This document shows, one piece after another, positions 8,742 to 15,734 of a DNA stretch of 64,000 nt. The stretch is from an uncultured Gammaproteobacteria bacterium (GTDB lineage: Bacteria; Pseudomonadota; Gammaproteobacteria; JACCXJ01), in contig CAVXTM010000005.1 in NCBI GenBank assembly GCA_963764725.1, positions 64,001 through 128,000 of the forward strand, written 5' to 3'. A program made the position numbers and the translations under genes. The first letter of the stretch is position 1, and every line of letters begins with the position of its first letter. A model generated the notes under the pieces. It was not told the origin of the DNA. It saw only the letters and a program-made list of their open reading frames with translations, and made no database searches.

Positions 8742-10120
8742 GGCTCTTCGGGAGAATTTGTGGGTAGATATGGGGTGGTTGACTAGAGGTTCAGCATCCC
8801 GCTCGGAATCTTTGGTTAGATGGAAGTGTGAACTTTTCATCGACCAGAGGGAGGGGAACGGGATGCAACTCAAGACTATCCTCAATCGCGTCGAGAAATC
8901 AAGTCGTTCGTGTACGGGGAGGCACGTGGGTGGAGGAAGCAGCGCGCCCCCGGCTGGAAGTGGAACTCCATCCACGGGCCAACGGCCGGCCGATCTGCTC
9001 GGGCTGTGGCCGAAGGGGGCCCGGTTACGATCGGTTGCCGATGAGGCGTTTCGAGTTCGTGCCGCTGTGGGGCATGACGGTGTTTTTCGTGTATGCGCTG
9101 CGGCGTGTGGACTGCCCCCGTTGCGGCGTGAAGGTGGAGCGCCTGCCTTGGGCGATGGGCAAGCACCCACTGACCGAGGCCTATGCGTGGTTTCTGGCCG
9201 GTTGGGCGAAACGGCTCTTTTGGCGGGAGGTGGCCGAGGCCTTCCAGACGACTTGGGAGGCGGTGTTCGCTGCAGTAGAACACGCGGTCCTGTGGGGCCG
9301 GGTGCACGTAGATCTCTCGGGCATTGACAGCCTGGGCATCGATGAGTTGGCTTGGGGACGGGGGCATCGGTACCTGACCATGGTCTACCAGATCGACGCC
9401 CGGTGTAAGCGGCTGCTGTGGATGGGCGAGAAACGCACGGTCAAGACGCTGTTGCGTTCCTTCCGTTGGCTGGGCAAGGAACGTAGCGCTGGCCTGCGCT
9501 TCATTTGCTCGGACATGTGGAAACCCTACCTCAAGGTCATCGCCAAGAAGGCGGGGCAGGCCATCCACGTGCTGGATCGCTTCCATATCATGGCGAATCT
9601 GAGCAAGGCGATGGACGAGGTGCGTGCCCAGGAAGCCCGGGGGCTCAAGGCCGAAGGCTATGACCCAGTGCTGACCAACACGCGCTGGCTCTTGCTCAAA
9701 CGCCCCGAGAACCTCACCGAGAAGCAAGAGACTAGACTCGCCGATCTGCTGCGCTACAATCTGCGCTCCGTGCGGAGCTATCTGCTCAAGGAGGACTTTC
9801 AATTCTTCTGGTGCTATACCTCGCCGTATTGGGCGGGGCAATTTCTCGATCACTGGTGCACACGTACGATGCGCTCGAAGCTCGAGCCAATGAAGAAGAT
9901 CGCTCGAATGCTGCGGGGTCATCGCGCGCTGCTGCTCAACTGGTTCCGCGCCAAAGGGCAGATCTCCAGGGGCGTGGTCGAAGGATTCAACACCAAGGCA
10001 AAACTGACCACCAGAAAAGCCTACGGCTTTCGAACCTATCATGCACTGGAAGTGGCTTTGTATCATACCCTTGGCGCTCTACCCGAGCCGCAGTTCACCC
10101 ATAGATTCTGCTGAGGAGCC
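8742..10120 (+). mobile_element. ISL3-family insertion sequence
   Basis: Terminal IRs GGCTCTTCGGGAGAATTTGTGGGT / GGCTCCTCAGCAGAATCTATGGGT; flanked by A8 on both sides (8734-8741, 10121-10128), consistent with an 8-bp TSD. Confidence 0.92.
8863..10114 (+). pseudogene. ISL3 transposase, frameshifted near the N-terminus
   Basis: MQLKTILNRVEK start is out of frame with the body (CSGC..CPRC Zn finger, GIDE, CSDMWKPY, DRFHI, VEGFNTKAK). Confidence 0.85.
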
Positions 10121-10712: not shown

Positions 10713-11120
10713 ATGATTTTCGTCGTATTGCTGATCGTGGTCAGGGGACGTAAATCGACTGAAATCGGCAGCCTACGCGGGAGCGCATTTGGAAAAGAGG
10801 AGATTCAGAAGGCGATAGCAGCCGGGAAGCTTCAGCACGTCTACTACGACGGAGAAGTGTTGAGCAGTCAGAGACATCGGGATCGCTTCGGTTTCCTGCT
10901 TGCGTACGGTCCCATCCGAACGGCACGATCTTCAAGCTCTTCGAGGGTTTACGACTTGCGCTCTAGCTTCGTGCATCACGGCCGAAATCCAGGCGATCTA
11001 GAGGTAATGAGCCGATTCCTCGCCATGGCATGATGTCGTGTGCAGCTGCTATGGCATCGTCGGGCTTTCAAGTCCAAGGACCACCTGCTCGCTACCTGAT
11101 TCGCTGAAGTATGCATGGAT
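10713..11120 (+). pseudogene. Degraded HEPN (Apea-like) domain gene, probable cassette remnant
   Basis: VYDLRSSFVHHG contains the RxxxxH HEPN motif; frame is broken; attC-like sites follow. Confidence 0.45.
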
Positions 11121-11313
11121 CAGAGGGATGCCGCCTAATTGTAGATGGCACGTCGCTCGCGCCAGCTCCGCAGGGTTGTGTTACGCGCCCGTGAAGCGAT
11201 GAGATTAAAAATCATGCATCCAGTGGCTGGGCGCATAACTGTTTCTATCGATGGCTCGCGATGTGCCATCGGGGCGGAGTTGAGCCTCACTCGTGATGGG
11301 AGGCGCTCGCGCC

Positions 11314-11431
11314 GCCATCCCTTCGTTCGAACGGCACCGCTTCGCTGCGCTCGCGGCTGCAGCCCACGCGGCTTCGTGGCAAGCAAGCTTGCCACTCCAC
11401 CGCGGGGCTGCCGCTCAACTCGCGCTCCGTT
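11314..11431 (+). other. attC site interrupted at its R' core by a group II intron
   Basis: Degenerate R'' GCCATCC, L'' GTTCGAAC, long central hairpin, L' GCTCAAC, then GTT; AGGC resumes at 14722 and restores GTTAGGC. Confidence 0.75.
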
Positions 11432-12050
11432 ATCGCGCCAAGGAAGCTTGGCGTATCTTGCAGGGTGAAAGTCCCTGCCGGGTAAGGGCTAACCACCCAC
11501 CCGTATCGAGTGTTGCGCCTGTGGCGGAACGTTCGAGCAGTCAGAAGGTTGTGAGAGTCGTGAACAAGACAGGCGAAGCGTACACAGAGCATCTCGTAGG
11601 CCACAAGGGTGATCGCACACCCTGAAGTGCTGGTACAGCCTCGAAAGAGAGTTTGTGGCAGTCGGCGAGCGTGTTAACGGACGTGAAGCCCATGGGAAGC
11701 GACCGTTTTGTTTGGGTGAGGTCGCGGAAGGCTGTCGGGGTCCTCAGGCCGTGGCATGCGAGAAGAGATACGTTGAGAACTTGGGAGGCCCCGAGTGCTC
11801 CTGGGGTTTGGAAGTGGCGTGGTAAGGCATACAGCTATTGAGGCACGGCAGGGGAAACCCGGCAACGGGGTTAGGCTGGAGCCTAAGCGGCGCTGCGGAA
11901 GGGCTCATGCGGGTAGGGGAGCTGAAGCGAAAGCCGAAGCGAACGAAGGTCGCTCGGAGGCGTCGGATCACCTCATAGTACTCGGAAGCCGGGAGAGCCG
12001 GCTACAGGGGGAAGGGGGTGACAGTGATACGCAGCCTGCAAAGGCAACTT

Positions 12051-14611
12051 ATGCCGGACACAGTTGGACCGGAAGAACATAAGCGAACCTCCCTGCAGGG
12101 AATAGCGTACAAGGCGAAGACCGACAAGGCCCATCGTTTTGGCAACCTCTCAGGGGAGCTGAACGAGGACTTGTTGAAAGAGGCCTGGCGCCGGCTTAAC
12201 AAGCAGGCGGCAGGAGGTGTAGACCGGGTCACGGCCCGGGACTACGAGCAGGAGCTCGATGCTAACATTAAGGGGTTGGTTGAGCGTCTGAAGGCCAAGC
12301 GTTATCACGCGCGGCTCATCAGGCGTCACTATATACCGAAGAGCGATGGCAGGCAGAGGCCGTTGGGCATACCTGTTGTCGAAGATAAGCTGCTTCAGGC
12401 TGCAGCGGCCATGCTATTGCAGGCGATATATGAACAAGACTTCTTGCCGGTAAGCTTTGGGTACCGCCCTGGGGTGGGAGCCAAAGAGGCGGTCGGGGCC
12501 TTGACGTTCAACCTGCAGTACGGTTGTTTTGGCTATATCGTAGAGGCTGATGTCAAAGGCTTTTTCGATAATCTCGATCACGACTGGCTCATCGGATGTT
12601 GCGCCTGCGGATCGGGATGAAGCGTTTATTGGCTTGATTCGCAAATGGCTCAAGGCGGGGGTAATGGAACCGGAAGGCGAGGTGATTCACCCGGTCACCG
12701 GCAGTCCTCAAGGCGGCGTGGTCTCACCGGTCTTAGCGAATGTGTATTTGCATTATGTGCTGGACCGGTGGTTTGAGCACGTGTCAAACCTCGGTGTCGT
12801 GGCAAGGCGATGCTCTGCCGCTACGCCGATGATTGGGTCTGCGCGTTTCAGTACCAGAAGAAGCCGAAGCTTTCCACCGGGTGCTACCGAAGCGGCTCGC
12901 CAAGTTCAACTTGGAGGTCGAGAAGACGCGGCTCCTTCGCTTTAGTCGCTTTCACCCGGGCCTAAGACGACGCTTTGCGTTTCTGGGCTTTGAGTTCTAC
13001 TGGGACATCGATCGCCAGGGAGAGCGTCAACTGAAGAACCGCACGGACCGGAAGAAGCTCCGGGCCTCGCTGCGCTCCTTCACGGAGTGGGTGAAGCGGC
13101 ATCGCCATTATTCCCTCAAGCGGCTCTTCGGGGAGATCTGTAGCAAGTTGCGAGGTTACTTCAATTATTATGGCGTCGCCGGCAATTCCCGTTCGGTGAA
13201 AACGTTCTTCGATGAGACCATGCGGATCCTGTTCAAATGGCTGAATCGACGGAGCCGCAAGCACCGGATGAATGGGTGGCGCTTCTACCGGCTAGTACTT
13301 CGTCACATAAATATGCTTACACATCATGCCAACTCCAAGTCGAAGCGCTTCCACCGGAAGGCGACGGGCTGCTCGTTCATTTCGGCGATCCCCTTGAGGA
13401 TTCGTTGTTTCAGTTCGTCTCTGGACGAAACCCGAATATGCCGTAGAAAACTGCGCGCCATTTTGGAGAAAGCGCACTCGACTAAGTTGAGCCAGGAACC
13501 GTGTTTGGGCGTATGAACGTACTCGAAGCGACCGGGACGCGTGGCCAAGTAGGCCATGGTCTCTTGCGGATATGGGCGGAATGGTGTCGAACCCCATGCG
13601 GTCGTCGGCTCGGGGTAGTGGGCATCTAGGCGCCTCTCGGCGCGATGAACTCCCGGCTACGGTGACGAGGCTCGACGTCGTCGATGGTTTCACCGTTGTG
13701 CGGTCCAGAGCGACCGGATGGACGCGTGCCGTGACGCACGTACTCGTGGTCGCGCCCGATCGCGGAGTGCTGGCCCGGCACGGGCGGCAGATGGGAGCCG
13801 TCACCCCGAGGGCTTGCACGCCCGGCTTTTCGTCCACACTCACCGAATAGACCGGCGCAGCGGTCTTCGCGCTCACCGGCGTGGGCGCATGCGCGTGCAG
13901 GCTCAGCTCGCGATACACCATCAGCACCTCATGCATCTGCCGCTCAAAGTCCGCATCACGCCGTTCCAGGTAGTACCGAATCCGGTGCGGCTTGATGTCT
14001 CGCTCATTGAGAATGCGCCACACCGTGGTCTTGTTGGTGTCCCGCAGGCGCGGGAATCCCGACTCCAAGGCTCGGTTGCCCACGAACTTCGCCAGTTCGG
14101 ACAAGGTCCACAATTCCGCAGCCAAGCCATGATCCTTGGGCTTGGTGCAGGCCAAGCTTACCACCCAGGCCTTGGCCTCCGGCGTGATCTCAGCGTCCTT
14201 GGGCCGGTGAAACCGATCCTTAAGTCCGACCAGCACACCGGCCGCAACTGCCTTGTCTATGCATTTGTAAATCGTCGGTCGAGACACACCCACATCGCGT
14301 CGGATGTCTGTAATCGATGCCCCATCAGCGTATTTCAGCAACACCTTGGCGCGCTCGGCTTCACGAACTGGCGCCGTCCGAGAGCGAGCCAATTCCGCAA
14401 GCATCGACCGGTGCGTAGCGGTCAGCGTCAACGGCGCACGCTTGGTTTTTCCTGTCATGTCCGACTCCCGAGAGGACTCGGGAGGACATCATGACACCAG
14501 CAGACATATGCGTAAAGATATTACAGTAACGATGTACTAGTGGATCTCTTTCACGTGCCGGTGCCCCGCATCACAGAGCTTAATCGACGACCGAATCCCG
14601 TGTTAGCATGA
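12051..14611 (+). pseudogene. ltrA: Group II intron reverse transcriptase/maturase without endonuclease domain; frameshifted and split by IS630
   Basis: [66 protein letters not shown]. Removing IS630 restores the C-terminus FYRLVDLFHVPVPRITE...VLA*. Confidence 0.9.
13292..14540 (-). mobile_element. IS630-family IS, transposase 13324-14458 frameshifted
   Basis: IRs TAGTACTTCGTCAC..AATAT / TAGTACATCGTTAC..AATAT with CTAG at both ends; HTH region, SVDEKPGVQA, HTPKHGSWLNLVECAFS. Confidence 0.9.
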
Positions 14612-14746
14612 TGAGGTCTTCGCTGACTGCGGAAGCGAGTATCACCGAGGAGCCCGGTGCGGTAGTTCCGCACGCCGGGATCTGTGCCGGGGCGGTCGGG
14701 TAACCGGCCGCTCTACGGCGGAGGCCGTAAGAACAGGAGCAAGAAT

Positions 14747-15646
14747 CTGAGAGTTCCATGGAACACAAATCGCTGTATCCTTTGCCTCCACGAAAACGAC
14801 TTGTGCGAGGAGCATCTGATTCCAGAGGCGCTCGGCGGAAAACTCACATGCGACTTTCTTTGCCGTACATGCAATTCGAAGCTAGGACACAACTTAGAGG
14901 CTAAAGCAAAGGCCGACCCGTCTGTCCTCATCGCCGCAAAACATCTCGCATCGCGGGTTCCAGAATTGGCAGCATCATTGCTGGAAAGCCACCCGCATAT
15001 CGGTCACAGCGAGCCGGGACCTGCCAAAGGATATATAAAGAACGGTGAGTTCATCGTCCGTTCGCAAAAGCTGGATGATGGGAGCCTTATCCAACCAACG
15101 GACCGTGCAAGAAACTCCATATCTAGGATATTGCAGAAATCTGGTTACGGAGAGGCGCCAATCAGTCTTGCAATGCAAGCATATGACGACGCTCCAGAGG
15201 ACACAAAATTAGAAATTGCTCCTGGTCTTGAGATCGTTAAGTGGCGTATTCAACGGTTGGAGTTGGATCTAAGCTGTGCTGTGCTGATGGACCCTCTTAT
15301 ACCTGCAAAAACGGCATACGAGTTCCTTGCTTGCCATATTGGTTCTGCCATCTATGACAGCGCCCCGCAACTGTCTGAAGTTCGAAATTGTTTAATAAGC
15401 GGCTTATTGAATACTGACCTGATACTGGTAGAGAGACTCTCTTCAAATAAGTACGAACCGTTTCATGGTATTTGCTTTGAAGGAAATGATCCCTACGCAA
15501 AGGTCGAAGTCAGGCTGTTTGGTTGGTTAGCATTCAGAGTTCATTTCCGTCGCCTATCGATTCAGGGACCAAGATTTATTTACACTCATCGGCTGGATAC
15601 CAAGGAAGAAGATGTTCGGGTTATTGATGAAGCAAAGACGGCCTAA
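14747..15646 (+). CDS. HNH endonuclease-domain protein (integron cassette)
   Basis: CILC...EEHLIPEALGG...LCRTCN. Lies between restored GTTAGGC and the complementary GCCTAAC that contains its stop. AGGAG RBS precedes a CTG codon. Confidence 0.8.
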   Translation: MRVPWNTNRCILCLHENDLCEEHLIPEALGGKLTCDFLCRTCNSKLGHNLEAKAKADPSVLIAAKHLASRVPELAASLLESHPHIGHSEPGPAKGYIKNGEFIVRSQKLDDGSLIQPTDRARNSISRILQKSGYGEAPISLAMQAYDDAPEDTKLEIAPGLEIVKWRIQRLELDLSCAVLMDPLIPAKTAYEFLACHIGSAIYDSAPQLSEVRNCLISGLLNTDLILVERLSSNKYEPFHGICFEGNDPYAKVEVRLFGWLAFRVHFRRLSIQGPRFIYTHRLDTKEEDVRVIDEAKTA

Positions 15647-15727
15647 CAACGCCATCAACACGGACCGCGAAAAGCGGCGCTCCTTCGTCGCCCCGCTTTT
15701 CGCGGCCGGTTATGGCGAGCGTTATGC
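15641..15727 (+). other. attC site (87 bp)
   Basis: R'' GCCTAAC, L'' CATCAACA, stem CCGCGAAAAGCGG/CCGCTTTTCGCGG, L' GTTATGG, R' GTTATGC. Confidence 0.9.
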
Positions 15728-15734
15728 CTAACCG

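Follow-up and report, generated by a model that had tools for sequence, protein, structure and literature searches.

A decayed class-E-type group II intron in the core of an integron attC site, and a lineage of relatives whose EBS1 loops follow the exon

We analysed a 64,000-nt stretch of DNA (hereafter the window), which is part of contig CAVXTM010000005.1 (C5) in the 4.2-Mb, 19-contig genome of an uncultured gammaproteobacterium. The window contains a group II intron lodged in the R' core of an attC site, upstream of a gene cassette that encodes an HNH endonuclease domain. The explanation that accounts best for our observations, with a probability of about 0.8, is that a class-E-type intron homed to the attC core through pairing of its exon-binding site 1 (EBS1) with the intron-binding site 1 (IBS1) at the end of the 5' exon, and that it subsequently decayed to a fossil. 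The coordinates of all features are collected in Table 1.

An Rfam scan matched RF02005 (group-II-D1D4-6) at positions 11468-11750 of the forward strand with 92 bits, for a gathering score of 49. Along with this domain I, the other hallmarks of group II introns are present, namely domain V (D5), domain VI (D6) with a bulged A, and an open reading frame (ORF) for a reverse transcriptase (RT)/maturase in domain IV, here a pseudogene. D5 and D6 fold as do those of the relatives of the intron, and the generic D5-D6 model RF00029 has no match to the window intron, even at E <= 1. RVT_1 and GIIM domains are spread over three overlapping frames between 12018 and 13516; a full-length relative of the window RT retrieved by a protein search, P0004, scores 344 bits on TIGR04416 (cut-off 300). 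Relatives align with the intron from its first base, 11433, and its end is at 14722. This length is made up of approximately 2045 nt of intron sequence and of a 1245-nt insertion due to an insertion sequence (IS). One A is ambiguous at the junction, which can be read as CCGTTA↓T...GGA↓GGC or as CCGTT↓AT...GG↓AGGC (arrows mark insertion points or, in G↓TT, the integrase crossover point).

The 32 nt before the intron (11401-11432) recur in the genome within a family of palindromic sites of approximately 170 nt that have the form ...CCAAC GGAGCGCGAGTTG ... CAACTCGCGCTCC GTTAGGC. The 19-mer at 11413-11431 has 22 matches in the genome at up to three mismatches, compared with one for the reversed control pattern. 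Three integron integrases were detected in the genome as TIGR02249 matches over the cut-off, on contigs C15, C7 (with one stop) and C13. Family copies were found on C7, C13 and other contigs, and because they share C7 and C13 with integrases, we consider these repeats to be attC sites. No integrase was found on C5, and thus the two attC of the window, the interrupted site and that of the HNH cassette, form a cluster without integrase. Across the junction, uninterrupted copies of the family read ...CGCTCCGTTAGGC/GTTGGG. The likeness of the window to these copies ends at 11432, beyond which they go on ...CCGTTAGGC, ...CCGTTAGGT or ...CCGTTGGG, and it picks up again with GGC at 14723; therefore, the intron splits GTTA↓GGC. 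A preliminary description of this DNA, made from the letters only, had proposed a group II intron that splits the R' core of an attC, co-oriented with the cassettes. The Rfam match, the RT domains, D5 and D6 and the uninterrupted attC copies bear this out, and the intron is on the same strand as the HNH cassette ORF. As also pointed out there, and as can be read directly from the sequence, removal of the intron generates GTTAGGC, the exact complement of GCCTAAC at 15641-15647, as one would expect for an HNH cassette that begins with TTAGGC. With the intron removed, the L' and R' boxes of the interrupted site are perfect for the family, and its R'' side is degenerate, with CCATC in place of the family's CCAAC (AAC to ATC) and a deletion in L''. 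In our reading, this site would belong to a true attC family and have decayed.

The loop assigned to EBS1 is placed by the Rfam structure and by its co-variation with the exon. We aligned domain I of 56 copies with MAFFT, which gave 52 distinct exon-loop pairs. The loop changes with the exon, as in the pairs GGGTGG/CCACCC, AATGCG/CGCATT, AGTACG/CGTACT, TTGTTG/CAACAA and ATGTTA/TAACAT. Complementarity is complete (6/6) in 35 of the 52 distinct pairs and at least 5/6 in 48; its mean is 5.56 versus 4.88 +/- 0.08 for shuffled pairs, a value that none of 2000 shuffles reached. For the 24 non-GTTA pairs alone, the mean is 5.29 versus 4.51 after shuffling (0/2000). In 21 of the 26 CGTTA members, exon position -6 is paired as well. 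The initial proposal that TAACGGA lies in the EBS1 loop and is complementary to TCCGTTA was therefore right. In three relatives (L044, L051 and L052) EBS1 is ACG(U) and the insertion is two bases earlier in the core; the 3' exon of L044 is seen as GT↓TAGAC, and for L051 and L052 it was not placed. The joint shift of insertion and EBS1 in these copies indicates that the insertion point within GTTRRRY can slide with EBS1.

We then asked to which class the intron belongs. More than 2000 relatives of the window RT fragment were found; relatives are 440 to 455 residues long and end soon after domain X, i.e. they have no endonuclease domain, and the window frame ends 23 codons after the IS. In comparisons with RTs of solved structure, P0004 scored 129, 119 and 115 bits with those of class IIC, 130 with IIB-CL and 119.5 with IIA. 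Labelled references were drawn from the record of plasmid pRmeGR4b, which has exactly two RT loci; the plasmid is described as bearing a copy of RmInt1, which is class D, and a disrupted intron of class E, S.me.I4 (PMC5894124). With the RT of the disrupted locus, S.me.I4, P0004 gave 260 bits (45% identity), and with that of the intact locus, RmInt1, 170 bits (37% identity). The S.me.I4 ribozyme matches RF02005, as does the window intron, and that of RmInt1 matches RF01999. RF02001 is presumably the family of class C (Oceanobacillus) introns.

Two RNA features described as hallmarks of IIE and IIF introns are a 5-nt D5 loop and an alpha' element at the tip of the DId3 stem-loop (PMC3753933). 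The D5 loop has 5 nt in the window intron and in all 14 relatives folded (UAGUU here; GAAAA, UAAUU or GAAUU in the relatives), a feature that is common to class F. In the hairpin directly 3' of EBS1, a GG(U/C) motif of the terminal loop co-varies with an upstream A(A/G)CC: among 45 distinct pairs, we counted 22 GC, 20 AU, two GU and one GG, i.e. 42/45 strict Watson-Crick pairs. We infer an alpha-alpha' contact here, alpha' being in the terminal loop. A 6-bp candidate for alpha-alpha' (CACCCA/UGGGUG) was rejected, as it fares no better than shuffles across the relatives (4.66 versus 4.58, 59 of 500 shuffles being as high); the contact that does co-vary in its place has 3 to 4 bp. Based on the RT similarity to S.me.I4, the RF02005 match and the two IIE/IIF hallmarks, we filed the intron as class-E-type. 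That it does not belong to class C, as first suggested, is supported by its RT being no closer to IIC than to IIB-CL or IIA, and far closer to S.me.I4.

Searches with a profile of 24 relatives identified at least 575 loci in a set of species-representative genomes. The best 80 were fetched, and 56 5' junctions, from many phyla, could be placed. Thirty-one of these end in GTTA, three in GTTG and three in GTT, three in GT, with T following in the 3' exon wherever the latter was placed (GT↓T), one is shifted by two bases and 15 are at other words. Thus, the GTT core is found at 41 of the 56 junctions. Among the 15 others, two one-base variants (GTCA and GTGA) keep the UAACG loop, one junction follows the 3' end of another intron, and most show a matching change in EBS1. 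In a quick IQ-TREE phylogeny of the RTs, from which the frameshifted RT of the window and three of the 56 junctions (longest open frame below 380 residues) were left out, members of the GTT type occur all over the lineage (39 of 53 rows), with the others dispersed among them. Such a distribution suggests, without proving it, that core targeting is the older state of the lineage. Metagenome contigs with near-identical intron sequence also have overhanging ends with the junctions ...GGCGTTA↓TTGCG and ...AAACGTTG↓TCGCG.

Many flanks of the relatives are textbook attC sites, such as GCCTAAC...GTTAGGC (L029), AGCTAAC...GTTAGCT (L048) and ATATAAC...GTTATAT (L015); including these, perfect or near-perfect R''/R' boxes were found at L029, L048, L015, L053 (two copies), L026 and L045. 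We scored 29 of the 42 two-ended junctions, the other 13 having no GTT, with a home-made measure of R''/L pairing, using as controls CGTTA sites from intron interiors and from window positions 20000-64000. The median was 18 for the 29 junctions versus 13 for 73 control sites (Mann-Whitney p = 4e-7), and 12 of the 29 exceeded the 95th percentile of the controls. An earlier version of the score, with CGTTA sites of the same flanks as controls (p = 0.08), was dropped because such sites in arrays are themselves attC; a duplex-energy z-score of the L'-R' side versus the upstream 170 nt was discarded as well on account of its noise (median z -0.61).

We also checked 15 genomes contig by contig for integrases, 11 with GTT-type copies and four with other targets. 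An integrase over the TIGR02249 cut-off is present on the intron contig, at 3.5 to 45 kb, in five of the 11 GTT-type genomes (copies L008, L011 (two), L012, L013, L019 and L053 (two)), and none was found on the intron contig in the four genomes with other targets. In four of the five intI-linked genomes, intI is divergent and the intron is directed away from it, i.e. with the cassettes; at L053 (G002:C37), unlike in these four, the integrase gene and the introns and attC downstream of it all run in one direction. Several copies in a genome can occupy different attC of one array (L011 and L053), and L012 and L013 are in two arrays. The suggestion that homologues would sit at attC ends with co-varying EBS1 is supported by the co-variation and by the enrichment at attC near intI, and 31 of 56 flanks end in GTTA. 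The stronger notion of a lineage that reads the attC core stands insofar as 41 of 56 copies are at a GTT core, and has to be relaxed insofar as 15 of 56 are elsewhere, so that attC is not the exclusive target of the lineage.

The window copy itself is dead. Set against a full-length relative of 76% identity in a comparison that tolerates frameshifts, its RT shows at least three frame changes, near 12598, 12790 and 12858, and an IS630-family element interrupts the gene. Neither a second copy of the intron nor an intact RT of the lineage was found in its own genome. Splicing of this copy, which would have to proceed without maturase, is unlikely, and neither its removal from the cassette transcript nor its mobility should be taken for granted. 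Sequences 95-99% identical to the intron (window positions 11423-13292 and 14537-14708) were found in contigs from cave, soil and ice metagenomes or metatranscriptomes (four runs from four studies). In three of the four runs, contigs join 13291/13292 straight to 14537/14538 and skip 1245 bases. Therefore, the intron occurs elsewhere without the IS, whose boundaries these joins confirm. The window flanks (11000-11140, and 14807 onward) are uncovered in all four runs; the intron is far more widespread than this host locus.

Several points weigh against homing of this lineage to the attC core. The relatives are the closest 80 of at least 575, and the proportions given above hold for this neighbourhood only; the R''/L score is of our own making. 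No intI is nearby in six of the 11 GTT-type genomes, L072, L076, L080, L013 and L060 are among the flanks that score no better than controls, and, judging from the flanks, some of the GTTA sites cannot be shown to be attC. EBS1 alone cannot provide a bias for attC, because CGTTA is far too common (73 control sites in the background scanned). A second cue would thus be needed, such as the folded or single-stranded attC or protein contacts; a search for EBS2/IBS2 pairing (6/6 between exon positions -13 to -7 and D1, binned by alignment column) showed no signal, with 11 in the top bin versus 9 in the reversed control. Our class-E-type label is derived from one literature-anchored reference and RNA hallmarks, and the intron may instead belong to an E-like sister group.

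Homing to any accessible 5'-NCGTTA-3', with no specificity for attC other than that these sites supply many copies of the word, often as single-stranded DNA, is the rival explanation that survives best, and we regard it as improbable. EBS1 pairing is indeed the sole recognition element shown, several GTTA flanks are not convincingly attC, and most of the copies at other words have a matching EBS1, all of which such homing would accommodate. Nevertheless, a word of 5 to 7 nt is expected thousands of times per genome, yet copies lie at most 45 kb from intI in five of 11 genomes, 12 of 29 flanks pair above the 95th percentile of the controls, and multiple copies have reached different attC of the same array or two arrays. 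A single ectopic event, in which an ordinary homing intron retrotransposed into a site that by chance resembled its usual target, with a coincidental attC location, might be suspected from a single, dead copy in an IS-rich region; it is very hard to reconcile with the same junction type in relatives of many phyla and with attC-core junctions at the ends of metagenome contigs whose intron is 95-99% identical. Least credible is a divergent offshoot of the class C-attC introns already known, which would share the attC location, the absence of an endonuclease domain and an upstream palindromic element, but not the RT affinities described above, the RF02005 domain I, the 6-7 bp EBS1, the ribozyme of approximately 585 nt 5' of the ORF, the 5-nt D5 loop or the sense orientation.

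Of the known systems, class C-attC introns are the obvious comparison. These introns, e.g. S.ma.I2 of Serratia marcescens, are likewise endonuclease-less bacterial group II introns specialized for attC and found within cassette arrays; their ribozyme is small and their EBS1 short, they insert in the bottom strand of attC and so lie between an ORF and its attC in antisense to the cassettes, and they block transcription from Pc (PMC3001079). The lineage described here differs in being class-E-type and IIB-like, in using the top strand at the R' end in sense orientation, and in placing a 6-7 bp EBS1 on the conserved core. Closer precedents were described by Sonbol & Siam in 2021 (PMC7923331), i.e. 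fragments of class E (IIB) introns, H.ha.F1 and H.ha.F2, in an attC cluster of Halorhodospira halochloris, and UHB.I2, a CL1 intron located right behind an attC, with a role of the hairpin presented as speculative. Like the window intron, these are non-class-C, co-oriented with the cassettes, preceded by attC or attC-like hairpins, and decayed with frameshifts. They are three cases from halophiles, and H.ha.F1 and H.ha.F2 are 5'-truncated, so that they have no junction, EBS1 or insertion point; for the present lineage, the full junction, the pairing, its co-variation and a lineage-wide pattern are available. The preliminary description had envisaged an independent, undescribed lineage. The junction and the pairing are indeed not in the available text of PMC7923331, and our literature search, which did not reach supplements, found no description of the EBS1-core pairing or of a lineage-wide attC pattern; class E fragments in an attC cluster, however, were published in 2021.

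S.me.I4 of pRmeGR4b (PMC5894124) and the IIE introns of Nagy et al. 2013 (PMC3753933) likewise have the RF02005 domain I, the 5-nt D5 loop, a terminal-loop alpha' and no endonuclease. S.me.I4 has the highest RT similarity among the labelled references reached, yet only approximately 45% identity. The rhizobial relatives L090 and L092 adjoin IS66-family genes rather than attC, and the 5' exon of L090 apparently ends in GCGCTTA. RmInt1 of Sinorhizobium meliloti (class D, IIB3) is likewise an endonuclease-less IIB-type intron, with retrohoming by base pairing and replication-fork priming (PMC5894124); it differs by its RT (37% identity), its RF01999 domain I and its target, an IS element.

We propose the following scenario. 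The intron would have entered between the fourth and fifth bases of the R' core, the target being chosen by pairing of the EBS1 loop, 5'-UAACGG-3', with 5'-CCGUUA-3' at the end of the 5' exon. All over the lineage, CGUUA would be retained since it forms the conserved attC edge, and exon position -6 would shift with the attC family of each host. By analogy with endonuclease-less introns such as RmInt1, the intron would reverse splice into the strand that bears IBS1, with priming by the replication fork and completion by host replication. Decay would have followed, with at least three frameshifts in the RT/maturase gene, the jump of an IS630-family element into domain IV and loss of AAC on the R'' side, so that what remains is a fossil within a small attC cluster that has no integrase.

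The G↓TT crossover point of the integrase, 3 nt upstream of the insertion, is intact, and the downstream cassette includes the intron. Whereas the intron was first supposed to block recombination, it might instead travel with that cassette. One can go further and combine these elements into a joint reading, which we put forward tentatively, the odds being against it as a whole: a large, phylum-spanning branch of class-E-type introns would have acquired attC homing separately from the class C-attC introns, with the opposite strand as its target; EBS1 would read the invariant CGTTA edge of the R' core in conjunction with a second cue, required because that word alone is too common, and most likely the folded or single-stranded attC; and the intron, because it lands 3 nt 3' of the crossover, would become the first part of the downstream cassette, carried by integrase-mediated excision and capture while splicing out of the transcript. 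The intron would then ride the integron rather than disable it. The attC site is the only sequence common to all integron cassettes, and its exploitation by introns has so far been a class C story. If our interpretation is correct, a second, unrelated lineage that reads the conserved core by simple EBS1 pairing, on the other strand and in the sense direction, would mean that retroelements have captured the integron convergently. Such a lineage would also provide a natural IIB-type intron with a target in every cassette array, which may serve as an integron probe or targeting tool, and it raises the question of whether an intron just inside the cassette boundary travels with the cassette.

The termini of the window intron, UCGCG...GGA, do not conform to the group II consensus 5'-GUGYG...AY-3'. 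A UCGCG start together with a GGA, GAG, UGA or AAG end is shared by seven related copies with open RT frames from six genomes, all in one clade, which argues against damage; the unusual ends noted at the outset are thus genuine. An eighth member of the clade, L067, begins differently, introns of the neighbouring clade begin with GCGCG or GUGUG, and most other relatives have GUGCG...GAC or GAU. Two copies of L011 in different attC sites of one array are identical, which points to recent mobility with UCGCG-type ends. Given the open RT frames and the duplicated copies, the two ends of the ribozyme may have changed in concert in this clade. The J2/3 region, inspected for a gamma-gamma' partner of the 3' ends, shows GGGAAGCCC versus GGGAGACCC differences and gave no assignment. 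The named members with a 5'-terminal U are L007, L008, L009, L011, L014 and L026 (a metagenome contig has UUGCG), with ends in GA or AG. Such a U1 terminus would be of interest to ribozyme specialists. In L007, L008, L009, L011, L014 and L019, the D5 triad is AAC with an A.G opposition (D5 approximately 75 nt before the 3' end), where most relatives, like the window copy, have AGC with G.A; the exchange affects a catalytic position that is invariant as a rule.

Table 1. Features of the intron, the interrupted attC site and the downstream cassette (window coordinates)
Feature	Position	Strand	Remarks
Left, larger part of interrupted attC (~170 nt)	11264-11432	+	Family with at least 10 further sites in the genome
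Boxes of interrupted attC	~11265-11270; ~11271-11285; 11413-11428; 11429-11432	+	Degenerate R''-like; L''; L'; GTTA of R'
IBS1 TCCGTTA	11426-11432	+	Last bases of 5' exon; pairs with EBS1
Group II intron, class-E-type (IIB-like, endonuclease-less)	11433-14722	+	Termini UCGCG...GGA
EBS1 hairpin of domain I	11664-11690	+	Loop GUUAACGG bears UAACGG(A), 11675-11681; Rfam structure and co-variation
Hairpin directly 3' of EBS1	11699-11725	+	Terminal-loop GGU, ~11715-11717, co-varies with A(A/G)CC, ~11491-11494
RT/maturase pseudogene, RT0-7 and X domains	12018-13292	+	YADD kept; last 23 codons beyond IS, 14540-14611
IS630-family transposase frame	13292-14458	-	NF033545, 91.7 bits, below cut-off of 100
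TA duplication around IS630-family element	13293-13294 and 14538-14539		
IS630-family element, 1243 bp	13295-14537	-	Imperfect terminal inverted repeats; splits end of RT ORF
Domain V	14650-14682	+	5-nt loop UAGUU; G.A opposition at AGC triad, relatives alike
Domain VI	14684-14722	+	Bulged A at 14715, 7 nt before 3' splice site
GGC, rest of R' core	14723-14725	+	Start of 3' exon, first bases of downstream cassette
Downstream cassette ORF, HNH_5 endonuclease domain	14758-15646	+	ATG 14758 is our choice of start
attC of HNH cassette	15641-15730	+	R'' GCCTAAC 15641-15647; R' GTTATGC 15724-15730

In the list of ORFs, the frame of the HNH cassette starts further upstream, at a GTG codon (14684) inside the intron. 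Possible intron stacking was observed at two other loci. At L048, an RF00029 match (2716-2790) lies approximately 650 nt upstream of the lineage member, and at L038 (~806) the intron begins right after the ...CUACUGCGAC end of another copy; these look like tandem or nested insertions in arrays. An ISL3-family transposase gene is found at 8828-10114 of the window (+ strand; 276.8 bits, cut-off 180), approximately 1.1 kb upstream of the interrupted attC, and the small attC cluster thus sits in an IS-rich patch. The relatives of the IS630-family element in the genome are only 67% identical to it (C18:87523-88428, C9:14559-15465 and C1:41940-42846), and a 76-nt end fragment with 92% identity (C1:197265-197340) adjoins another RT remnant.

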